A stretch of DNA of 34,662 bases from an uncultured Candidatus Saccharibacteria bacterium (GTDB taxonomy: Bacteria > Patescibacteriota > Minisyncoccia > Phycocordibacterales > CAIZIN01), in assembly GCA_964525175.1 (NCBI GenBank), contig CAZGFB010000001.1, positions 1-34,662 on the forward strand, written 5' to 3'. Both the position numbers and the translations under genes were made by a program. Each line of letters begins with the position of its first letter. Positions within the stretch are counted from its first letter, which is position 1. Positions 13,887 through 34,162 of the stretch are shown here, in pieces. The notes under the pieces were generated by a model. It searched no databases. It saw nothing but the letters and a program-made list of their open reading frames with translations, and had not been told where the DNA came from.

Positions 13887-16800
13887 ATGAATGAAAAAAC
13901 CTATATCAGCCAAAAATCTGTTCAATCTTCTAATCTAGGATACGAGAGAGAAAATAGCTCCCGTTCAAAATTTAAATTATCTTTAGTAAAAACATTTGTA
14001 ATCTTTTTTGTGTTCCTTTTATTTTTTGTAGTTCGAGTAGAAAAAATTCACGCCGCGCAAATAACAGTTTATGCTACGGCAAATGGTGTAAAATGGATGG
14101 GTACTAATGCTGGTTGGAATACAAATCCAGATGGTGTGAGTGGAACTTTTTATAGTAATCCACAAAACAATTCAACTGATACGTTTATTGTTGATCTTAA
14201 TGGAAAATCTGGAATATCTATTGATACAGACATTGTTGTAGATAAAATACAAGATTCTTCAGCTACTGCAAGCGTTTCTCTTAATGCGCCAAGAACTATT
14301 TCTGTTTTAAATGGTGGTATTTACTATTCGGGTGCTAATACAGGGGGACTTATTAGTTCAAGTTATAATTTGACAGTTCTTGGTACTGTCACGAGCGCAG
14401 TTGGTGGTAAGCGTGTGATTATTACAAGTGGGACCGCATCGTTGACAATTAATGCTGGTGTTGGAAATACGGCAGTTCTCAATCAAGGAACGAGCTATGT
14501 AATTAATCATGCTGGTAGTGGCCAAATTACAGTTATTGGAAAAGTTGTTGGTTCAACAACACTTGCTGCCATTTACGTTACTACCGCATCCAATCAGCTT
14601 TATTACAATCCAGGATATGATGTTTTTAGTGATGGAGGCGCTTCTGCTGGTGGCCGTTCTTTACAAAATACTAGTGGCACAATTGTTGCAGTTGGAAATA
14701 TATCAGGTACATCTGCGAACGGGTCAAGCATAGAAATGATTCGAAATGATGGTGGAACCTTTGAATTAATTGGAAATATAGCAATTACAGGCTCAGCAGT
14801 TCGTGGTATTTGGAACCGCACAGGAGCTGTCGCACACGTGTATGGAAATGTTGATGTGTCAGGCAGTACCGGCGCCTCTTATGGTGTTTGGAATCAATCA
14901 GTCACTACAAGCAACACAATTACTGGTAACCTAAGCAATCCAAGTGGCTCACCAACAGCTGTCGCAGCTTTTTCTAGTGCTGGAATGGTAACAATATATG
15001 GAACAAAAACTGGAAGTGGAACTGTGAACTCAGCAACTTATACTACGATGGCAACGACTTATGTTTCAGTTTCCCCGGCATCATTACCTGCCGGAGCAAC
15101 TGGATATCTCGACACTAGTATTACTGGAGTAGGGACTACTTGGAACGGAAGTGAAACCCCAACAATAAATAATAGTGTAAGTAGCATTACTGCTGTATCA
15201 TCTGGTGAATGGACTACTACAGATGGCACACATGCCACCTTGCCTTTGCAAAATAGTGCAACAAGTAGCTTTGGTGCATTTAGTATAACTATAGGTACAG
15301 CTACTTCTGGTCCACTTGCTGTTTTTTCACCCTCACATATTTTGAGTCAAACAACCGGAGCGACAAGCAATTCCTATAACTTAACAATTACAGGAATAAA
15401 TACTCTTTGGGCGATGGATATTGCAAAAGGAAATCATACAGCTTCAAATTTATTCTCTGCCTCTACTGGAGGGACAATAAGCAATGTCCTAGTATCAAAT
15501 GATAATACAGTTACTTTAACATTAGCTACAGATGCAACTCAGCGTGTAATAACTATTACAGATAATAGTACAAATCAAACAAGTGCTTTTGATACAAATA
15601 ATATTTTAACGTACGATCTTAGTCCAACCGGAGGGAATGTAAATAATTATATTATGATCGAGGGAGGTATGAGATGGGATGGTGGTCGTTGGATCAGCAC
15701 TGCGCTTACTAGTGGTGCAGGAACTGCATTGGGAGCAGTACGCTTTGTTGGAAAGATAAATAAAATAGATGGCTATATTTCTCAGACTGGTAGTGCTGGA
15801 GCTGGTAATTTGGTTATTTTAAATATTGATGGTGAAAATGGGCCCACCTATTCTGTTCCTTATGTAGTTGGTGGGGCATTCCCAAATGCATGGCTTACAA
15901 TGTTTTCTGGATTAGATGACACAGCCACACATACATATATGTTAATTTGGCCAAACGGAGAAGTTGTGGGTAACCCAACTATTGGAAAAATTCGCACGAC
16001 AGGTGGTACAGGAATCAGCACTACAGCTCTTGTTCCACGGCCTGTGCTAGCGGTTTACGGTGATTCAATTACTCAAGGTGGAGCATACGAAAGTTCGCCA
16101 CATAACTCAACACTTTATTATGCTTATTTGTTAGCAAAAAAACTCAATTATCAAGTCGTTAACTTGGGAATTAGTGGAAGTACAGTTAGCTCACTGACTC
16201 ATGGAGGTCTTAATCCAACAACAAAAAATGGTGTAAGCAGAACAGCTGATATAACTAGCCTTAACCCAAAAGCAAGTATAGTATTAATTTTATATGGTAC
16301 CAATGATGTTACCTTTAACGCTAACCAAGGAGGAACACCCACAGAGGCCAATTTTCGAGCGGACTATGCTAGCATGCTCGCTGGTATTCGTGCGGGAAAC
16401 CCAAATGCATTAATTATTTCAGAGAGAATTTTGATGACGTCGCGAGTGGATGAAGCGACTAGAAATACATGGAGCCAAACAGATATTGCAGCAGCTGTAT
16501 CAGCACAATCAGATCCAAAGATTTTATATATGCATGGTGGGTGGGATAATTATCAAGACACCACAGGTAGTGATGGAGTGCACCCTCTTCCAAGTAAAAA
16601 CCAAGATATAGCGGATGGGATGTATTCTGACATTATCTCTGCAATTTCGACAACTGATTCAATTAAAGTTGCTACAACTACATTGACCAGCAGAGGTGGT
16701 ACATCTGCAACAATTACTTCTGCGGGTGGTATTCATGGTACGGCACCATACACATATCAATGGCTGCGTAGTGCAACGAGTAGCTGGTCTGGATTTCAAG

Positions 16801-17957
16801 TTGATGGAGCTACTGCAACAACATTAAATGACACAGGTTTAAATCCTTTGTCGACATACTATTACACACTTCAAACGACAGACAGCAACGGATTTTCAGC
16901 ACTTAGTAGTCCTGTTGAGGTTGGTCCTGCTTCAAACGACGCTACTCTTTCTGATTTAGTTATAAGTCAAGGAACTCTAAGTCCGGTATTTTCTTCAAGT
17001 ACAACTTCATACACCGTTGATGTTTTAAATGACGTCACAAGTTTGACTGTTACTCCAACTGCAAATCAGGCAAATGCAACAATCACAGTGAATGGTGAGG
17101 CCGTTAATAGTGGTGAAACATCAAGCCTAATAACATTAAATGTTGGTGACAACACTGTTTTGACGGTAACACTTGCTCAGGATGAGTCAACAACCAGAAC
17201 ATATACAATAACTGTAACAAGAGGGGCTGTAATAGTTATTCCACCAACATTAACCGTTCAAGACGCTTCATTGGTTGCAACGAGTTCCGCTGTCTTTAAT
17301 GGAACTATCACAGTTGATGGATATGCCTCTTCAACTATTGTTGGTTTTAATTATGGAACAACATTAGCATATGGTAGTACAGCTTCAACTACTGGAACAT
17401 TTGGTACAGAAACTTTCTCTAAAACAGTTACAGACCTGCTTCCAAATACTCTCTATCACTTTCAGGCTTTTGCAGAAAATAGTGCAGGGGTCGGAACATC
17501 AAGTGATGCTACAACTACCACCTCAGCACTTCCTGTATCTCCGGTACAAAGCACAACCAGATCCCAGGGTAGCTCAGTACAAAGCAGGCTTAAAAACCTA
17601 ATTTATATGGGCAAAACCCAAGCGGCAGATGATTTAAAGAAACAATATTCCTATCTATTTCCAAATGAAAATCAAATAGACACAAAAGCAAAAGAGACTT
17701 CACCTTCCCCAGCGTTTACTCGAGATCTTAAATTTGGTATGACAGGAGCGGATGTTAAGAAACTTCAACAATATTTAAACAATAATGGATATGTCGTTGC
17801 TAAAACAGGAGCTGGATCTAAAGGAAAAGAGACGACAACATTTGGACCTGCAACACGCTCAGCTTTAATTAAATTTCAAAAAGCAAACAAAATTACTCCA
17901 GCAATCGGATATTTTGGTCCAAAAACACGAGGTGTGGTGGAGAAATCTGCTTTGTAA
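13887..17957 (+). CDS. Large secreted/cell-surface multidomain protein with SGNH (GDSL) hydrolase and C-terminal peptidoglycan-binding domain
   Basis: Signal/anchor segment (VKTFVIFFVFLLFFVVRVEKIHA). About 650 aa Gly/Thr/Ser/Asn-rich repetitive region (beta-helix-like). SGNH blocks GDSITQGG (GDS at 16059..16067), GISGST, YGTNDV and DGVHPLP. FN3-like segments, a cadherin-like/Big segment (ATLSDLVISQGTLSPVFSSSTTSYTVDV) and a PG_binding_1-like C-terminus. Confidence 0.85.
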   Translation: MNEKTYISQKSVQSSNLGYERENSSRSKFKLSLVKTFVIFFVFLLFFVVRVEKIHAAQITVYATANGVKWMGTNAGWNTNPDGVSGTFYSNPQNNSTDTFIVDLNGKSGISIDTDIVVDKIQDSSATASVSLNAPRTISVLNGGIYYSGANTGGLISSSYNLTVLGTVTSAVGGKRVIITSGTASLTINAGVGNTAVLNQGTSYVINHAGSGQITVIGKVVGSTTLAAIYVTTASNQLYYNPGYDVFSDGGASAGGRSLQNTSGTIVAVGNISGTSANGSSIEMIRNDGGTFELIGNIAITGSAVRGIWNRTGAVAHVYGNVDVSGSTGASYGVWNQSVTTSNTITGNLSNPSGSPTAVAAFSSAGMVTIYGTKTGSGTVNSATYTTMATTYVSVSPASLPAGATGYLDTSITGVGTTWNGSETPTINNSVSSITAVSSGEWTTTDGTHATLPLQNSATSSFGAFSITIGTATSGPLAVFSPSHILSQTTGATSNSYNLTITGINTLWAMDIAKGNHTASNLFSASTGGTISNVLVSNDNTVTLTLATDATQRVITITDNSTNQTSAFDTNNILTYDLSPTGGNVNNYIMIEGGMRWDGGRWISTALTSGAGTALGAVRFVGKINKIDGYISQTGSAGAGNLVILNIDGENGPTYSVPYVVGGAFPNAWLTMFSGLDDTATHTYMLIWPNGEVVGNPTIGKIRTTGGTGISTTALVPRPVLAVYGDSITQGGAYESSPHNSTLYYAYLLAKKLNYQVVNLGISGSTVSSLTHGGLNPTTKNGVSRTADITSLNPKASIVLILYGTNDVTFNANQGGTPTEANFRADYASMLAGIRAGNPNALIISERILMTSRVDEATRNTWSQTDIAAAVSAQSDPKILYMHGGWDNYQDTTGSDGVHPLPSKNQDIADGMYSDIISAISTTDSIKVATTTLTSRGGTSATITSAGGIHGTAPYTYQWLRSATSSWSGFQVDGATATTLNDTGLNPLSTYYYTLQTTDSNGFSALSSPVEVGPASNDATLSDLVISQGTLSPVFSSSTTSYTVDVLNDVTSLTVTPTANQANATITVNGEAVNSGETSSLITLNVGDNTVLTVTLAQDESTTRTYTITVTRGAVIVIPPTLTVQDASLVATSSAVFNGTITVDGYASSTIVGFNYGTTLAYGSTASTTGTFGTETFSKTVTDLLPNTLYHFQAFAENSAGVGTSSDATTTTSALPVSPVQSTTRSQGSSVQSRLKNLIYMGKTQAADDLKKQYSYLFPNENQIDTKAKETSPSPAFTRDLKFGMTGADVKKLQQYLNNNGYVVAKTGAGSKGKETTTFGPATRSALIKFQKANKITPAIGYFGPKTRGVVEKSAL
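17625..17921 (+). repeat. 297-nt near-identical direct repeat (copy 2)
   Basis: See 13361..13657. Confidence 0.9.
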
Positions 17958-20229: not shown

Positions 20230-20793
20230 ATGCTTCTCAATCCAAAAATTCAAAAAGCAATTTATGTTGCTACGCATCAACATCGCCATCAAGAAAGAAA
20301 AGTGAGTGGAATGCCATATATTGTACATCCTTTTTCTGTTGCCTGGCTTTTGTCAGAGCAAACAAAAGATGAAGATATTATTGTAGCGGGCTTGCTTCAT
20401 GACGTGCTCGAGGATACAGACGGCTATGATTACAATGATATTGTGAGAGATTTTGGAGAAAGAGTTGCCGAAATTGTTTCCGAGGTAACAGAATTTAAAG
20501 ATTTGCCTTGGCATGAAAGAAAAGAGAAGTATATTAAAGTCTTTGAAAATTCATCACAAGAATCTTTGATGGTTGCAACAGCGGATAAGATTCATAATTT
20601 ATCTTCACTTTATGAGGAGATTTTGGAGACAGGAGAGAATCCCTTTGGTACTAAGTTTAAATCATATGATGAGTCAAAATGGTTTTATGAATCTGTATAC
20701 GAGGTGATGGAAAGAAGACTAGGGAATAAAATCCTTTTGGCAGAATTTAAGGAGATGTTGGAGTTGGTTTTTAAGGGTAGAATTAAGAATTAG
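20230..20793 (+). CDS. HD-domain protein, RelA/SpoT-type (p)ppGpp-hydrolase-like (small alarmone hydrolase-like)
   Basis: YIVHPFSVAWLL...GLLHDVLEDT...ATADKIHNL pattern of the HD_4/SpoT hydrolase domain. The ATG is 1 nt after the cupin gene stop. Confidence 0.8.
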   Translation: MLLNPKIQKAIYVATHQHRHQERKVSGMPYIVHPFSVAWLLSEQTKDEDIIVAGLLHDVLEDTDGYDYNDIVRDFGERVAEIVSEVTEFKDLPWHERKEKYIKVFENSSQESLMVATADKIHNLSSLYEEILETGENPFGTKFKSYDESKWFYESVYEVMERRLGNKILLAEFKEMLELVFKGRIKN

Positions 20794-20952: not shown

Positions 20953-21552
20953 ATGGACACAACAAAAAGAACCCCAATATCTATTTTAAAATGGTCTCTC
21001 ATTATCGGGATTGTAATAGTTCTCAATCTTTTCTATAACTACACACTCTCCCTTGTCTTTTCTGCTCCAGAATATAATACATATTGTGAACAAAAGCAGG
21101 TAAATATTTCTCCAGATACTCAAGAAAAATGTGTTGCTGAAGGCGGTGCCTGGACTCAATATCCCGCAAATGCGAATCCAAAACTAATCAACCAACCTGT
21201 TATTGTTGATCCAAACAACAACACTAACGTACTTGGTTATTGCGACCAGACATTTTCATGTAGTCAAAAATTTGAAGACGCAAGTAAAAAATACGACAGA
21301 AATGTTTTCATCACCCTTGTCGTTCTTGGCGTACTCACTTTTGTTGCCAGTTTGTTTTTTGTGAATTTTGAAATTGTTTCTGTTGCGCTTTCGATTGGTG
21401 CAGTGCTTGATTTTGTAATTGCTTCCATTCGTTATTGGGCAAGAGCAGATGATTTGATCAAAGTTTTAATTCTCGGTGTTGCTCTCGCTGTACTTATTTG
21501 GGTGGCAATTAAAAAATTTAACATCAAAGCTGAAAATGAACCCCGCGTCTAA
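20953..21552 (+). CDS. Hypothetical membrane protein (199 aa)
   Basis: N-terminal TM segment (WSLIIGIVIVLNLFYNY), a Cys-containing extracytoplasmic segment and three C-terminal TM segments. Overlaps the leuS start by 17 nt. Confidence 0.6.
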   Translation: MDTTKRTPISILKWSLIIGIVIVLNLFYNYTLSLVFSAPEYNTYCEQKQVNISPDTQEKCVAEGGAWTQYPANANPKLINQPVIVDPNNNTNVLGYCDQTFSCSQKFEDASKKYDRNVFITLVVLGVLTFVASLFFVNFEIVSVALSIGAVLDFVIASIRYWARADDLIKVLILGVALAVLIWVAIKKFNIKAENEPRV

Positions 21553-24500
21553 AGATTACGATCATAAAGAAATAGAGCCAAAGTGGCAAAAAGAATGGGA
21601 AGAGAAAGGCGCATTTAAAGCCTCGATTGACCTCTCTAAGCCTAAAAAATACGTACTCGATATGTTCCCGTATCCTTCGGGTGCGGGGCTTCATGTGGGG
21701 CATCCTCGTGGCTATATTGCCTCTGATGTTTATGCACGCTTGATGCGAACGAAAGGTTTTAACATTCTTCACCCGATGGGTTTTGACTCTTTTGGTTTGC
21801 CCGCAGAACAATATGCAATCAAAACAGGCAACAATCCAAAAATTTTTACAGATGAACTTGTAAAACAATATCGAAAACAATTAGACATAATTGGTTTTAG
21901 TTATGATTGGGAAAGACAAATAGCGACTCACAGACCTGAATACTACAAATGGACACAGTGGATTTTTTTGAAGCTATATGGATCTTGGTATAACAAAGCT
22001 CACGATAAAGCGGAAGCGATTGAAACTCTGGAAGCTATTTTTGAAAAAGATGGAAATGAAAATGTAAATGCAATTTGTGATTCTGATACAAAAATTGTAA
22101 CCGCTTCTGAGTGGAAAGAAATGGACACTTTAGCGAAACATCAATTATTGATGAAGTATCGATTGGCCTACGAAGGGATGAGCTCGGTAAACTGGTGCCA
22201 AGAGCTTGGAACAGTGCTCGCCAACGATGAAATTGTGGACGGTCCAGACGGCGCGCCTGTTTCAGAGCGTGGAGGCTTTCCTGTTGAGAAAAAAACTTTA
22301 AGACAATGGTTTTTAAGAATTACAGCTTATGCCGACAGATTGTTAAGTGGATTAGAAACAATTGATTGGCCTTCGCATATAAAAGAAATTCAAAAGAATT
22401 GGATAGGGAAATCTGAGGGTACTCAGATTAAATTTAAAATTAAAAATGAAAAATTTAAAATTGAGGCAGAAAAAGAAATAAATCTACCCAACCCTGTGTC
22501 ATCCTCGGGTACTCCCGGGGATCCAAGTCTGGATTCTTCTGTAGAAGTCTTCACAACCCGAGTAGATACTCTTTTTGGCGTCACCTATGTTGTTATTGCA
22601 CCAGAACATGAATTAGTACAAAAACTTTTAGAGTCTGTTTCAAACAAGGAGGAAGTTTTGAAATATATTGAAGAAGTAAAAAATAAAACAGCAGAAGATC
22701 GCACTGCTGAAAATAAAGAAAAAACAGGTGTGCCACTTAAAGGTGTAACAGCCGTAAATCCTGCAAATGGAGAAGAGGTGCCTGTGTGGATTGCTGATTA
22801 TGTTTTGGCTTCATACGGTACAGGTGCAGTGATGGCAGTGCCAGCTCACGATGATCGAGATTTTGCTTTTGCGAAGAAGTATGGATTGGAGATTAAGGAG
22901 GTTGTTATTTCAGAGAGGATTGATAAGAGAAATCCTCCAGTTGCCAATAAAGAAAAAGTTGAAAGAAAAAATGTTCAAGCGGTGGTATTTGATCCTAAAA
23001 CTGAGAAATATTTGTGTTTACATTCTATTAAACATCTGTGGAATACTTTTCCAATGGGTGGAGTGAACGACGGGGAAGATTTAATTGAAGCAGCTAAAAG
23101 AGAAGTTTTAGAAGAGACCGGATATAAAAATTTGATAAAAGGTAAAATTCTTGGAGGTTCCGTACGCGCTGAATATTTTGCTAAACATAAAGATCAAAAT
23201 AGAGTTTCATTCACAAATTTAGTTTATTTTGAATTAGATGGGTATAGTCAGGATGAAATTTCAGAAGAAGAAAAAGGAGAGAATGAAATATTATGGGTAG
23301 ATAAAGGCAACTTGAATTGTGATTTTATGTGTCATGCGGAAATGGATGTGTGGCTTGAGAGATTAAACAATGCTGAAGGTTCATACAACGATGACGGTGT
23401 GCTTGTAAATTCTCAAAAATTCGACAGCCTTTCTTCCGAAGAAGCACGAAAAGAAATTACGAAAGCTGTGGGTGGAAAATTTGTTACAAAATATAAAATG
23501 CGAGATGCTGTGTTTGCAAGACAAAGATATTGGGGAGAGCCGATTCCAATTATTCACGAAAAAGACGGAACGATAAAGGCTCTTTCTCCAAAAGATTTAC
23601 CGCTAGAACTTCCAGATGTTAAATCTTATGCTCCAACAGGTAATGCAGAATCTCCACTTTCAGCCGTTGAGGATTGGATGGAAAAAGGTTATGAAACAAA
23701 TACAATGCCGGGCTGGGCGGGTTCATCTTGGTACTTCCTACGATATATGGATCCTAAAAATGAAAATGCTTTTGCGAGTGAAGAAGCGTTAAAATATTGG
23801 GGGCAGGTAGATATGTATGTGGGAGGAGCTGAGCACGCAACAGGGCATCTTTTGTATTCAAGATTTTGGAATAAGTTCTTACACGATTTGAATCTTGTGC
23901 CAAATGAAGAACCTTTCAAAGTTCTTCGAAATCAAGGAATGATTCTCGGTGCCGATCATAAAAAAATGTCAAAAAGATGGGGGAATGTTGTTAATCCTGA
24001 TGATGTAGTAAATACATTTGGTGCAGATACACTTCGAGTTTTTGAAATGTTCATCGGGCCATTTGATTCACAACTTCCTTGGTCCACAGATGGTATAATT
24101 GGTTCAAGAAGATTTATTGAAAAAGTTTGGCGACTTCAGTATAAGGTTGTAGAAGATAACGGCGACCCTTCAAACTTTTTGCCATTACATCATTTGGATA
24201 CAAATGATGCAGAAAAGAATCAGACGGCAAAAACTTTTAAGGGCAAGTATCCTTACGAGCAAAGTCTCCATAAAACTATAAAAAAAGTTGGAGAGGATAT
24301 TGAATCATTTAATTTCAACACAGCAATTTCAGCAATGATGATTTGTTTGAATGAAATGGAAAAATCTGATAAAGTTTACAAAGAAGATTTCGAAAAATTT
24401 CTACAAATTCTTTCTCCATTTGCCCCACACATTACAGAAGAGATTTGGAGCACACTCGGTAAAGAGAAAATATTACAGGATTCTGGCTGGCCGGAATTTG

Positions 24501-24721
24501 ATGAAAGTAAGCTTACAAGTGAGACTGTAACAATGGTGGTACAGGTCAATGGAAAGGTTCGTGGGGAGCTAATTGTGCCTACAAATGTGGATGAAAATAC
24601 CGCATTAGAATTAGCAAAAAATTCTGAACAAGTCGCAAAATGGCTTGAAAAAGCTGAAATTATCAAGGTCGTTTTTGTCCCGGGTAGACTTGTCAACATT
24701 GTTGTCAAGGTTTCCCCTTGA
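21536..24721 (+). CDS. leuS: Leucine--tRNA ligase with extra in-frame insertions (repeat-derived peptide; Nudix domain)
   Basis: HIGH motif ([14 protein letters not shown]), editing domain ([44 protein letters not shown]), [10 protein letters not shown], KMSKS as KMSKRWGN and the C-terminal VQVNGKVRG domain. ATG 21536 ([21 protein letters not shown]) is preferred over GTG 21476. Confidence 0.95.
   Translation: [1061 protein letters not shown]
22498..22529. repeat. Short hairpin repeat unit inside the leuS coding sequence
   Basis: GTCATCCTCGGGTACTCCCGGGGATCCAAGTC followed by TGGATTC. Differs by one loop base from the intergenic unit at 32063..32093. Translated in frame as [14 protein letters not shown]. 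Confidence 0.9.
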
Positions 24722-31144: not shown

Positions 31145-31162
31145 TTGAAGTATAATACTTCT

Positions 31163-32002
31163 ATGACCCCAGAAACATACATCAAAAAATCGTCAGGCGT
31201 ACTAGAATTGTTTAACAAAGCTAAGCTCATTGACTCCCTAGAAAAAGCGGGAGCCTCAATGTTTGTTGCAGAAGATGTCGCAAACAAAATTGAAGAAAAA
31301 TTAAAAGAAGGAATGCCTACCTCAATGATTTATTCTCAATCATTCAAACTTCTCCGTAAAAAGGAAAGTCGACCAGCTATTCGATATTCACTTCGCCGAT
31401 CGATCGCAGATTTAGGTCCAACAGGATTTCCGTTTGAAGATTTTATTGGGGAAATATTTAGAGAGAAAGGTTTTAATATTATAAATGACTTAATGGTGCA
31501 AGGAAAATGTATTGAGCATGAAATAGATATTGTTGCACATAATGAAGACCATTTAATAATGACAGAAATTAAATTTCATAATCAGCTCATGCTAAAGTCT
31601 GATGTGAAAGTTGCTTTATATATCAAGGCTCGTTTTGATGACTTAGAAGGTGTTGATTTTGTAATTGATGGAAAGAAAAGAAAGATGACACAAGGTTTAC
31701 TTTTGACTAATACAAAATTTACTGAACATGCTATTAAATTTGGTGCTTGTGCGGGTGTAAATATGATCGGTTGGAACTACCCTGCAAAAGGTAATTTGCA
31801 CGATCTTATTGAAGAGACAGGTCTTCATCCACTAACATGCCTCACTACACTTTCAGGAAGAGAGAAAAAAGTGCTTTTGGAAAAAGAGATTGTTACATGT
31901 AAAGCTCTTAAATTGAAGAAAGAAGTTTTGATTGAAATGCAATTGTCGGAGGGTAGAGTAGCTAGGGTGTTGAAGGAGATAGAAGAAGTCGCATCGTTTT
32001 AA
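31163..32002 (+). CDS. ATP-cone domain + PD-(D/E)xK (Mrr-like restriction endonuclease fold) protein
   Basis: The N-terminus IKKSSGVLELFNKAKLIDSLEKAGASMFVAEDVANKIEEKLKEGMPTSMIY resembles an ATP-cone. The central FEDFIGEIFREKGF...HEIDIVAH...IMTEIKFH gives a D...E-x-K nuclease motif. ATG 31163 preferred. Confidence 0.7.
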   Translation: MTPETYIKKSSGVLELFNKAKLIDSLEKAGASMFVAEDVANKIEEKLKEGMPTSMIYSQSFKLLRKKESRPAIRYSLRRSIADLGPTGFPFEDFIGEIFREKGFNIINDLMVQGKCIEHEIDIVAHNEDHLIMTEIKFHNQLMLKSDVKVALYIKARFDDLEGVDFVIDGKKRKMTQGLLLTNTKFTEHAIKFGACAGVNMIGWNYPAKGNLHDLIEETGLHPLTCLTTLSGREKKVLLEKEIVTCKALKLKKEVLIEMQLSEGRVARVLKEIEEVASF

Positions 32003-32315: not shown

Positions 32316-32417
32316 TCCCGTTAGAAGTTTACCATAGGTACAGCTTGGATCTTCGGGATAATTTAGTTAAATAAATGAATTAGTGTAAATATATTAATAA
32401 GTAAACTTCTAACGGGA
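32316..32417 (+). promoter_or_regulatory. alaS leader: 17-bp perfect long-range inverted repeat ending at the A of the start codon
   Basis: TCCCGTTAGAAGTTTAC (32316..32332) pairs with GTAAACTTCTAACGGGA (32401..32417) around a 68-nt loop. Extended -10-like TGgTATAAA at 32296..32304 lies just upstream. Confidence 0.6.
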
Positions 32418-34162
32418 TGAACTCAAACGAAATTCGACAAAAATTCTTAAGTTTTTTTAAAGAGCGGGGGCACGCGGTTATTCCTTCCGCCTCGCTAATT
32501 CCAGAAAACGATCCTTCTGTACTCTTCACCACAGCTGGTATGCACCCTCTGGTGCCATATTTACTCGGAGAGAAGCATCCGTTAGGGGCAAGGCTCACAG
32601 ACGTCCAAAAGTGCGTCAGGACAGGGGATATTGATGAAGTGGGTGATTATGCACACCACACTTTTTTTGAAATGCTCGGTAACTGGTCCTTGGGTGACTA
32701 TTTTAAAAAAGAGGTGATAGCTTGGAGTTATGAATTCTTAACATCTCCAGACTATCTTGGTTTAGACAAAAATCGAATTGCTGTTTCAGTATTTGAAGGT
32801 GATGCAGATGCACCCTTTGATCAAGAAGCTTATGATGCATGGAAAAATTTAGGAATTAGTGAAAAAAGAATTGCAAAACTTCCAAAGAAAAATAACTGGT
32901 GGGGTCCTGCTGGAGAAGCTGGTCCTTGTGGTCCTGACACCGAAATGTTTTATTGGGTAGGGAGCCCTGAGGAAGTTCCAGAAAGTTTCAACGATGACAA
33001 TGATCTTTGGCTTGAAATTTGGAATGACGTTTTCATGCAATATGATAAATCAAAGGAAGGAAAATTTTCTGAATTGCAACAAAAAAATATCGATACCGGA
33101 ATGGGTCTTGAAAGAACCCTTGCTGTTGTAAATGGTTTGGATGATAACTATAAAACTGAATTATTCTGGCCGATCATAGAAAAGATTGAAAGTCTTTCTG
33201 GTAAAAAATATGATGATGATAAAAAAGCAATGCGAATTATTGCTGATCACATAAAAGCTTCTGTGTTTATTTTGGGTGACAATATGGGTATTGCTCCCTC
33301 AAACTCTGGGCAAGGCTATGTTTTGCGCAGGCTCATAAGACGAGCTGTTCGATATGGCAAACAATTAGGAATGGCTTCTTTTACAGGAGATGTTGCTAAA
33401 GTTGTGATTGAAATTTATAAGGATGTCTATCCGGAACTTATAAAGAATCAGGATTTTGTTTTGAATAATCTTTCTCAAGAAGAAGAGAAATTTGAAAAGA
33501 CTTTGGAAAAAGGTTTGAAAGAATTTGAAAAAGGAATTAGTCCTTTTGTGCTTTTCACTACTTATGGTTTTCCATTTGAAATGACTAAGGAATTGGCGAT
33601 GGAAAAAGGGGTTGAGATAAATGAAGAAGAATTTAATAATGAATTCAAAAAACATCAGGAGCTATCCCAAACTTCATCCGCAGGAATGTTTAAGGGTGGA
33701 CTTTCGGATTCTGGAGAGGAAACAAAAAGACTCCATACCGCTACACATCTTTTGCGACAAGCACTAGAAAATGTTCTTGGCGAAACCATTGTTCAAAAGG
33801 GAAGTAATATCAACGCTGAAAGACTTCGTTTTGACTTTGCATTTTCTCGAAAACTGACAGATGAAGAAAAACAAAAAGCTGAAGATTTAGTAAATGAAAA
33901 AATTAAAGAAGCTTTGCCAGTTCATCGAGTCGAGCTTCCAAAGGAGGAAGCTATAAAGACTGGTGCTGTACATTCATTTAGCGACAAGTATGGAGATGTT
34001 GTTTCTGTCTATTATATTGGGGATTCTATTGAAACAGCTTTCTCAAAAGAATTCTGTGGCGGTCCGCATGTTTCAAATACAAGCGAACTAGGGAAATTTA
34101 AAATTGCAAAAGAAGAAGCTGTATCTGCGGGAGTACGAAGAATTAAGGCTGTGTTGGAATAA
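32417..34162 (+). CDS. alaS: Alanine--tRNA ligase, compact form (no C-Ala domain)
   Basis: FLSFFKERGHAVIPSASLIP, FTTAGMHPLVPYLLG, HHTFFEMLGNWSLGDYFK, DTGMGLERT and the editing-site motifs HTATHLL and CGGPHV. It is only 581 aa and ends right after the editing core. Confidence 0.92.
   Translation: MNSNEIRQKFLSFFKERGHAVIPSASLIPENDPSVLFTTAGMHPLVPYLLGEKHPLGARLTDVQKCVRTGDIDEVGDYAHHTFFEMLGNWSLGDYFKKEVIAWSYEFLTSPDYLGLDKNRIAVSVFEGDADAPFDQEAYDAWKNLGISEKRIAKLPKKNNWWGPAGEAGPCGPDTEMFYWVGSPEEVPESFNDDNDLWLEIWNDVFMQYDKSKEGKFSELQQKNIDTGMGLERTLAVVNGLDDNYKTELFWPIIEKIESLSGKKYDDDKKAMRIIADHIKASVFILGDNMGIAPSNSGQGYVLRRLIRRAVRYGKQLGMASFTGDVAKVVIEIYKDVYPELIKNQDFVLNNLSQEEEKFEKTLEKGLKEFEKGISPFVLFTTYGFPFEMTKELAMEKGVEINEEEFNNEFKKHQELSQTSSAGMFKGGLSDSGEETKRLHTATHLLRQALENVLGETIVQKGSNINAERLRFDFAFSRKLTDEEKQKAEDLVNEKIKEALPVHRVELPKEEAIKTGAVHSFSDKYGDVVSVYYIGDSIETAFSKEFCGGPHVSNTSELGKFKIAKEEAVSAGVRRIKAVLE

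Follow-up and report, generated by a model that had tools for sequence, protein, structure and literature searches.

A predicted Nudix hydrolase domain nested in the editing domain of a leucyl-tRNA synthetase from Patescibacteria

Introduction

Aminoacyl-tRNA synthetases (aaRSs) are among the most conserved enzymes. Eukaryotic ones are well known to carry accessory domains, but we are not aware of any report of an entire second enzyme set within a bacterial editing domain. Here we analyze a 34,662-nucleotide (nt) stretch of DNA ("the window"; contig CAZGFB010000001.1 of assembly GCA_964525175.1) whose leuS gene encodes a leucyl-tRNA synthetase (LeuRS) with a predicted Nudix hydrolase domain inserted in frame. 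By alignment, this domain lies within connective peptide 1 (CP1), the editing domain, which is itself an insertion in the Rossmann fold.

The canonical bacterial LeuRSs from E. coli (4AQ7/4ARI/5ON2) and Thermus thermophilus (1H3N/2BYT) belong to the same family (TIGR00396) as the window's protein and share its fold, with target-normalized template modeling (TM) scores of 0.79–0.82. The HIGH and KMSKS signatures and the threonine-rich and AHDxRD motifs of CP1 are all kept. Unlike these enzymes, the window's protein has a Nudix domain of 156 amino acids (aa) instead of an 11-residue CP1 loop, extra segments at aa 149–208, 310–335, and ~873–903, and no leucine-specific domain.

On the Nudix side, the hydrolases of diadenosine polyphosphates (ApnA) and RppH (NUDT2, NudH/RppH, Aquifex 3I7U, T. 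thermophilus Ndx1, and MutT1/Rv2985) share the fold, the Nudix box, an aromatic residue at +17 from the box, and then a lysine. However, the insert is only 16–26% identical to them, is embedded in another enzyme, and has motifs of its own (R477, HKxxNR, E579, and W587). The best relative in the PDB, by profile and by fold, is 2AZW from E. faecalis, a structural genomics target. It shares the motif F-Y-x-x-H-[KR] with the insert, but it is free-standing and only 18% identical.

The closest functional analogy is NadM-Nudix, a bifunctional NMN adenylyltransferase and ADP-ribose pyrophosphatase (PMC7824862). There, the Nudix domain breaks down an adenylylated product, and its partner is an adenylyl-transferring enzyme of the HIGH superfamily. 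NadM-Nudix is an end-to-end fusion with a different host enzyme, though, and the matches of its NCBIfam models are insignificant. For a class Ia aaRS with an additional small enzyme domain, there is a curated precedent, "ileS_w_GNAT" (NF040702), but both the synthetase and the accessory domain are different, and the window's protein scores just 59 bits against a cutoff of 1999.

Full-text searches of the literature on Nudix together with LeuRS, aaRSs, or CPR (candidate phyla radiation)/Patescibacteria gave no description of the architecture. A preliminary description of this DNA, made from the sequence without database searches, was not aware of any described LeuRS with it. This agrees with the literature that we found, but PF00293 is already annotated automatically in these proteins and over 100 relatives share the layout. 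The LeuRS and Nudix parts are known, and the arrangement is undescribed in that literature; the exchange of the insert between relatives and the aaRS gene neighborhoods of its free-standing homologs are the newest elements.

The Nudix domain and its host

When the window's protein is aligned to T. thermophilus LeuRS (1h3n), aa 336–457 pair with Thermus residues 243–362 and aa 614–805 pair with 374–579. This leaves aa 458–613 unpaired, so there is an insert of 156 aa in place of 11 Thermus residues (363–373). A natural ortholog that lacks the insert has 8 residues at this site. The Pfam NUDIX model (PF00293) matches aa 477–589 (22964..23302) at 44.9 bits (gathering cutoff 21.1; E = 1.4e-11), and the excised insert alone scores 49.5 bits. 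As the preliminary description had anticipated, this match is nested in LeuRS: it splits the editing-domain model PF13603 into stretches, with the break at profile position ~149 of 185. The Nudix box had also been placed exactly, and the full GX5EX7REUXEEXGU pattern is present. On the other hand, the extra segment had been put at ~165 residues (we measured ~156), and the block AVPAHDDRD had been labeled "post-editing." Since that block is in fact the motif of the editing site, the insert lies within CP1, not after it. The insert and its motifs are:

22907..23374, + strand: Nudix insert (aa 458–613, 156 aa; from the Thermus alignment and the insert-less ortholog L094)
23057..23125, + strand: Nudix box GGVNDGEDLIEAAKREVLEETGY (aa 508–530; metal-binding and catalytic motif, from the translation)
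23174..23203, + strand: subfamily motif YFAKHKDQNR (aa 547–556; aromatic residue at +17 from the box, K552, N555, and R556)

Given an alignment of 85 sequences, AlphaFold2 modeled the whole protein with a mean predicted local distance difference test (pLDDT) score of 86.9 and a predicted TM score (pTM) of 0.78, and pLDDT is 90–96 across aa 460–610. Foldseek compared this model to the E. coli LeuRS-tRNA complexes 5on2/4aq7 with a target-normalized TM of 0.82. Modeled alone, again with AlphaFold2, the insert has the Nudix order of strands and helices (pLDDT 93.1, pTM 0.85). A Foldseek search of the PDB with the insert gave 459 matches at E ≤ 1e-3, and every match listed was a Nudix protein. The best was 2azw, a MutT/nudix protein (TM 0.72), followed by M. 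smegmatis MutT1, RppH, an NDP-sugar hydrolase, the M. tuberculosis ApnA hydrolase Rv2985, NUDT15, and Ap4A/Ap6A hydrolases (Ap4A is diadenosine tetraphosphate). In contrast, the matched full-length chains of solved bacterial LeuRSs (822–880 aa) have no Nudix domain. The structure prediction that had been proposed as a check thus yielded a confident alpha/beta/alpha Nudix fold within a LeuRS model. Together with the nested Pfam match and the survey of orthologs (below), it supports the central claim of the preliminary description, an autonomous Nudix domain in frame in LeuRS and in one polypeptide. The insert looks like a whole Nudix pyrophosphohydrolase, able to fold on its own and competent in catalysis, from an uncharacterized subfamily.

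The G+C content (region 22900..23500) is 0.33–0.34 across the insert and 0.39–0.41 in the flanking parts of leuS.

As for the host, the protein scores 948.7 bits against the bacterial LeuRS equivalog TIGR00396 (leuS_bact), where the curated cutoff is 548.4. Pfam also matched tRNA-synt_1, beside PF13603, PF08264, and PF00293. The gene and its LeuRS features are:

21536..24721 (stop included), + strand: leuS, encoding LeuRS with the embedded Nudix domain, a single open reading frame (ORF) of 1061 aa
21692..21703, + strand: HIGH-type signature HVGH of the class I synthetic site (aa 53–56, from the translation)
22403..22906, + strand: CP1 editing domain, N-terminal part (aa ~290–457)
23375..23500, + strand: CP1 editing domain, C-terminal part, leading back to the catalytic core (RDAVFARQRYWGEPIP; aa 614–~655)
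23963..23977, + strand: KMSKS-type loop KMSKR (aa 810–814, from the translation)
24263..24595, + strand: anticodon-binding domain (aa 910–1020; PF08264, 82.7 bits)

The ORF translates without a stop and in a continuous frame, in agreement with the earlier claim of one polypeptide of 1061 aa. Among 85 aligned LeuRSs, H53, G55, H56, M811, and K813 are invariant, and the other residues of the HIGH and KMSKS motifs are at least 90% conserved. The N-terminal part of CP1 includes the threonine-rich motif FTTRVDT (aa 339–345) and the AHDDRD motif (aa 437–442). PF13603 matches at 205.3 bits, and its best stretch is aa 333–467 (profile positions 20–149 of 185). T340, T341, R342, T345, H438, D439, R441, and D442 are invariant in the 85 proteins. 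These presumably correspond to T247/T248/T252/D342/D345 of E. coli, and by homology to those residues, the editing site looks intact.

The C-terminal part of CP1 aligns with Thermus LeuRS from residue 374 on, and F660–P671 are invariant. We take the Thermus editing domain to be residues ~224–417, and extrapolating from this presumed end near residue 417 puts the end of CP1 near aa 655. KMSKR comes almost directly after QGMILG, so the leucine-specific domain (Thermus ~580–637) is missing: in this region (23948..23977, aa 805–814), residues 805 and 811 align with Thermus 579 and 638.

Two other segments have no counterpart in Thermus LeuRS. One is a 60-aa block (aa 149–208, 21980..22159) that is well folded and conserved in the family. 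The other is a disordered loop (aa 873–903, 24152..24244; pLDDT < 50 at aa 880–903); in L081 and L094, which are syntenic relatives, it is 26–27 aa shorter.

Genes with and without the insert have a gene order in common (HI0933-like, cupin, HD_4, membrane protein, leuS, and sigma70_r4 protein), which indicates orthology to the housekeeping leuS locus. This gene is the housekeeping LeuRS of a Patescibacteria (Paceibacteria-type, CPR) bacterium.

Distribution and conservation of the insert

A protein identical to the window's LeuRS (P0005) is present in the NCBI and JGI databases, on 2 contigs, and the LeuRS of a syntenic relative (P0006) is found on 8 contigs. To survey the orthologs, we took the 120 best LeuRS homologs by total score to the window's protein (46–82% identity). 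PF00293 is found in 112 of them, and 108 have a strict Nudix box. The named sources are metagenome-assembled genomes of "Candidatus Paceibacterota" and "Patescibacteria group bacterium." We also scanned the GTDB species representatives with two peptide patterns from one type of insert, which gave 106 loci, and we kept 80. In 77 of these 80, the box is inside one long leuS ORF, nearly always with HxGH upstream and KMSKS downstream. These genomes are of the Yonath-, Kaiser-, Wolfe-, Vogel-, Yanofsky-, Buchanan-, Kerfeld-, and Tayloriibacteria types. When the insert alone served as the query, an exhaustive HMMER search recovered 420 cluster representatives (E ≤ 0.001); among the 149 best new ones, 99 were LeuRSs or fragments of LeuRS. 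A word-index search with the insert only gave 4 fragment matches. The survey that the preliminary description recommended therefore found a recurrent insert, and a Nudix domain in LeuRS is the majority state in a large clade of Patescibacteria.

The probability that the arrangement is an artifact (a chimeric contig, a gene translated on its own, or something akin to an intein) is negligible. It is true that the contig is derived from a metagenome and that the G+C content is slightly lower in the insert. But the layout recurs in over 100 independent assemblies and in 77 of the 80 GTDB loci, the reading frame is unbroken, and both P0005 and P0006 were recovered on more than one contig. Independent re-assemblies and the continuous frame rule out an assembly chimera or a separate gene. 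We also rejected an intein or homing element: there was no match to Hint/intein families in Pfam, and the junctions (EVV/ISE and AEG/SYN) lack splice residues.

Several of these homologs (P0009, P0012, P0020, P0033, and others) are named by NCBI only as "class I tRNA ligase family protein" and not as leucine--tRNA ligase. We guess that the insertions may be the cause of this annotation gap.

To examine conservation, we aligned 79 LeuRSs that contain the insert. Their inserts are 18–77% identical to that of the window (mean 41%), while the rest of the protein (the body) is 56–92% identical (mean 63%). Despite this divergence, the residues G508, G509, E514, R522, E523, E526, E527, and G529 of the box are identical in 79/79. 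Outside the box, K552 and N555 are each conserved in 77 proteins, R477 in 76, W587 in 74, and R556 and E579 in 71 each; position 547 is aromatic (Y or F) in 73. An invariant box in such divergent inserts is the pattern of an active enzyme, not of a decaying or purely structural insert. Judging by these alignments, the catalytic residues of the Nudix domain are under strong purifying selection across more than 100 species.

Exchange and loss of the insert

The JGI contig that encodes P0006 (L081) matches the window in its order of genes, which runs HI0933-like, cupin, HD_4, membrane protein, leuS, and a sigma70_r4/HARE-HTH protein, with YceG and MnmA further downstream. The bodies of the two LeuRSs are 96% identical, but the inserts are just 41% identical. 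Along leuS, the DNA identity is 86–100% except at aa 301–360, 451–624, and 865–895. Across the insert, it drops with sharp edges to 52–59% (36–59% for the protein). By the method of Nei and Gojobori, the two bodies have a synonymous divergence (dS) of 0.45 and a nonsynonymous divergence (dN) of 0.022; for the inserts, the proportion of synonymous differences (pS) is 0.77, which is saturated, and dN is 0.48. The extra synonymous divergence suggests that the insert was replaced by a distant allele, rather than changing rapidly in place by adaptation.

Other syntenic orthologs, P0018 and P0017 (= L094, ~80% identical), have no insert. Both have GLEIKEVI-SGGNILDK-SFNDDGILINS where the window has GLEIKEVV-(156 aa)-SYNDDGVLVNS.

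More broadly, the identities of body and insert are uncorrelated across the 3081 pairs of the 79 proteins (Spearman correlation –0.08). Three pairs have bodies that are 95–96% identical and inserts that are 28–41% identical; conversely, there are pairs with bodies of 57–60% identity and inserts of 72–77%. Body and insert have the same nearest neighbor in only 12/79 proteins, and single linkage at 60% identity gives 29 types of insert. Because we chose the homologs by total score to the window's protein, the correlation between body and insert might be biased; we base the conclusion mostly on the individual pairs and the dS test, which are unaffected. Within one insert type, the body and insert of close relatives co-vary normally, which suggests mostly vertical inheritance with occasional replacement and loss. 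In these comparisons, the insert behaves as an exchangeable and dispensable cassette that is swapped or lost between close relatives.

A second insertion site

Another loop of the editing domain, which we call Site A, also varies:

22463..22540, + strand: Site A loop, N-terminal edge of the editing domain (aa 310–335, 26 residues)

In the window, this loop does not align to Thermus LeuRS, which has none, and it is predicted to be disordered (pLDDT < 50 at aa 318–332). In other LeuRSs from Patescibacteria, Site A contains Ham1/ITPase, ASCH, GNAT, alpha/beta-hydrolase, or DUF559 nuclease-like domains, or one or two extra Nudix domains (P0057, P0068, P0059, P0040, P0112, and P0125–P0128). A single LeuRS can have up to three Nudix copies.

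Relatives outside of LeuRS

The subfamily of Nudix domains that includes the insert also has free-standing members. These are 155–200 aa long and 31–49% identical to the best-matching insert, which is comparable to the identity between insert types. The genomic neighborhoods of nine such members are:

P0267: 3 nt upstream of an insert-less leuS
P0141: directly upstream of an insert-bearing leuS
P0287: directly upstream of thrS and miaA
P0275: directly downstream of argS, with an ileS-like gene nearby that contains a His_Phos_1 insertion and adjoins a Nudix gene of its own
P0162: two genes from a proS that carries a Nudix domain
P0183: two genes from a bacterial-type proS
P0176: directly after fpg
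P0194: beside another Nudix gene
P0204: beside a PRK-family kinase

For six of these nine, there is an aaRS gene within two genes. Our rough expectation for a random gene is 5–10%, and this is a small sample. The subfamily is fused to synthetases in some genomes and encoded next to them in others; this "Rosetta stone" pattern suggests a functional tie to aminoacylation. Members are also inserted into other proteins. In an archaeal-type ProRS (P0242; L093 2762..4693), the Nudix domain lies between the anticodon-binding and C-terminal domains. In P0218 (1318 aa), which is similar to M17 leucyl aminopeptidases, two GNAT domains and a Nudix domain of this subfamily are inserted, so the in-frame insertion of small enzymes is not confined to aaRSs. 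Overall, these fusions and gene neighborhoods point to a functional link between the subfamily and aminoacylation.

The synthetase near P0275 is an IleRS/ValRS-like class I enzyme of 1167 aa with an inserted His_Phos_1 domain (L083 6386..9889; also in L084 and L085). The gene immediately after it (L083 9891..10316) encodes a Nudix protein of 141 aa. At the same locus, argS is followed by the Nudix gene of the LeuRS-insert subfamily.

Possible functions of the Nudix domain

None of the curated models of Nudix families claims the insert, as every score is far below the cutoff. For the RppH models (NF001934–NF001938), the best score of the window's insert is 28.9 bits, compared to a cutoff of 116, and the match is mainly to the Nudix box. 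We tested 32 inserts: all 32 matched the RppH model NF001938, and 29–30 matched the models for YtkD and NudE. The MutT models (TIGR00586 / NF008044) did not match the window's insert at E ≤ 0.01 and matched 14–16 of the 32 family members weakly. Because of these low scores, we rejected assignments to RppH, YtkD, NudE, NudI, MutT, and NadM-Nudix.

We also compared a profile of the inserts to the PDB. It matched 2azw at full length (E = 7.5e-11), the lupin Ap4A hydrolase 1f3y in the box region only (E = 8e-10), and the Aquifex Ap4A hydrolase 3i7u at near full length (E = 5e-8). The match to AtNUDT7, which acts on ADP-ribose and NADH, was comparable to those of the Ap4A hydrolases. K552 aligns with the lysine of "LKGE" in the Aquifex enzyme, and the adjacent HK pair aligns with AtNUDT7. 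Y547 is at +17 from the box, and a tyrosine ~17 residues downstream of the box is reportedly a signature of ApnA hydrolases. Since this feature is common to ApnA hydrolases and RppH, it is only suggestive. The conserved residues at aa 547–556 probably contribute to base stacking and phosphate binding. We dropped the attempt to infer the substrate from the fold neighbors because they are too heterogeneous. The preliminary description had suggested the clearance of Ap4A or adenylates, or action on RNA 5' ends, and had marked these ideas as speculation. Of these, the hydrolysis of leucyl-adenylate (Leu-AMP) is unlikely on chemical grounds: the bond in an aminoacyl-adenylate is an acyl-phosphate, not a pyrophosphate. 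Aminoacyl-adenylate hydrolysis is the job of HIT enzymes.

The reading that we prefer, with a probability of roughly 45%, is that the embedded Nudix domain hydrolyzes adenylylated by-products of the synthetase, such as Ap4A and related dinucleoside polyphosphates (ApnN). aaRSs make Ap3-5N from the aminoacyl-adenylate and nucleotides, and the asymmetric Ap4A hydrolases Nudt2, RppH/NudH, and MutT1 are Nudix enzymes that yield ATP and AMP (PMC7705103). Under our proposal, the active site of LeuRS would make Ap4A or other ApnN from Leu-AMP and nucleotides, and the tethered Nudix domain would split Ap4A-type products into ATP and AMP. In cells without de novo nucleotide synthesis, this would recycle adenine nucleotides, and it would prevent the build-up of ApnN and of RNA caps derived from them. 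The Nudix domain would be an accessory third activity, not needed for aminoacylation or editing. We favor ApnA-type substrates because of the aromatic residue at +17, the match of K552 to the Aquifex lysine, the fold neighbors (RppH, MutT1/Rv2985, and Ap4A/Ap6A hydrolases), and the subfamily members that adjoin or are fused to aaRS genes. More tentatively, we speculate that the two variable loops of the LeuRS editing domain in Patescibacteria are a docking platform for in-frame enzyme cassettes that are exchanged horizontally, with the Nudix domain as a dedicated partner of aaRSs that clears dinucleoside polyphosphates or RNA caps.

Several observations weigh against the clearance of Ap4A-type products. 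Homology allows no substrate assignment: the fold neighbors include enzymes specific for MutT-type substrates, ADP-ribose, NDP-sugars, and RNA, and the nearest relative in the PDB, 2azw, carries no assigned function. The insert is dispensable, as syntenic orthologs with ~80% identical LeuRSs lack it. The unrelated enzymes at Site A fit with opportunistic hitch-hiking of domains, and the insertion in the M17 peptidase and the members beside fpg or a kinase temper the argument for a functional link. Also, LeuRS is only a modest producer of Ap4A, and ArgRS is not known to make any.

Opportunistic hitch-hiking is the alternative that many of these observations would fit: LeuRS, an essential and constitutively expressed protein, would be a mere scaffold for expression and stability, with a permissive loop in a streamlined genome, and the insert would be a general house-cleaning hydrolase (similar to MutT or ITPase) that has no mechanistic tie to leucylation. 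Besides the small enzymes in the neighboring loop, the Nudix domain in P0218, the free-standing P0176 after fpg, and the insert-less orthologs, this could account for the weak matches of MutT/MutT1 models to 16–17 of the 32 inserts. We doubt it because members of the subfamily are adjacent to or fused with leuS, the free-standing ones recur near thrS, argS, proS, and ileS (the six of nine above), and LeuRSs make up 99 of the 149 closest cluster representatives. An RppH-like activity seems less likely still; it would convert 5'-triphosphates, or Np4A- or NAD-type caps, to monophosphates on tRNA(Leu), on the precursors of this tRNA, or on other RNAs. RppH and YtkD do give the most consistent, albeit weak, curated matches across the 32 inserts, and structures of RppH, its complex with Ap4A included, rank near the top of the fold matches. 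The mobile CP1 domain binds the 3' end of the tRNA, which is beside the 5' end (LeuRS-tRNA structures 4aq7/4ari), aaRSs can cap 5'-triphosphate RNA from the aminoacyl-adenylate (PMC7705103), and the tRNA enzyme gene miaA is among the neighbors of the free-standing members. But the scores are far under the RppH cutoffs and rely mainly on the box, no RNA-binding extension is evident, and mature bacterial tRNAs normally have a 5'-monophosphate after cleavage by RNase P.

The exchange of inserts raises the idea of a conflict-driven cassette that protects LeuRS or the cell from nucleotide-like aaRS inhibitors or from nucleotide signals derived from phage or host. The uncoupled similarity of body and insert (the Spearman correlation and the pairs with 95–96% identical bodies), the saturated synonymous sites of the insert next to flanks with dS of 0.45, the 29 insert types in 79 proteins, presence/absence polymorphism at syntenic loci, and the GNAT and hydrolase modules in the neighboring loop could all be explained this way. 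Nevertheless, we consider it improbable: competent bacteria could swap the insert by recombination in its conserved flanks with no conflict involved, close relatives within one insert type co-vary normally, and the known inhibitors that mimic adenylates lack the pyrophosphate bond that Nudix enzymes cut. Furthermore, PADLOC gave only a 19-bit, box-level match to the candidate system PDC-S07, and the matches to phage Nudix families were generic, so we rejected membership in a defense system. Lastly, the Nudix fold might be non-catalytic and act as a nucleotide sensor or as a structural cap that modulates editing or aminoacylation. Its position in the mobile CP1 domain and its faster divergence than the body (mean identity of 41% versus 63%) would suit such a role. 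Given that the metal-binding and catalytic residues of the box are invariant in all 79 proteins, this is very unlikely; non-catalytic proteins with the Nudix fold often lose such residues.

Other genes in the window

The start of leuS overlaps the upstream ORF for a 199-aa membrane protein (20953..21552) by 17 nt (21536..21552). L081 and L094 have this overlap too, suggesting that translation of the two genes is coupled. A small HD_4 gene (20230..20793), similar to RelA/SpoT-type hydrolases, lies two genes upstream of leuS; all three syntenic relatives keep it in this position, whether or not they have the Nudix insert.

The window's AlaRS (32417..34162) has just 581 aa, with the catalytic core and tRNA_SAD, and the C-terminal part appears to be absent; E. 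coli AlaRS has ~875 aa. The ORF at 31145..32002 joins an ATP-cone to an Mrr_cat domain (similar to restriction endonucleases). The gene at 13887..17957 encodes a protein of 1356 aa with GDSL-lipase, cadherin-like, and peptidoglycan-binding domains.

Implications

The swapping of cassettes between near-identical LeuRSs indicates that even a gene essential for translation can carry a module that is open to exchange. This has a practical bearing on the use of leuS as a phylogenetic marker and on automated annotation. For protein engineering, the loop offers a naturally permissive position that accepts inserted enzymes of 150 aa.

If the two loops are indeed a platform, they would represent a previously unrecognized layer of control over aaRS side products and a new kind of modular evolution inside an essential gene. 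CPR bacteria are unable to make nucleotides themselves. If the Nudix domain does clear Ap4A-type products, then the synthesis and degradation of an alarmone would be physically coupled, and this would give a handle on the nucleotide economy of CPR bacteria.

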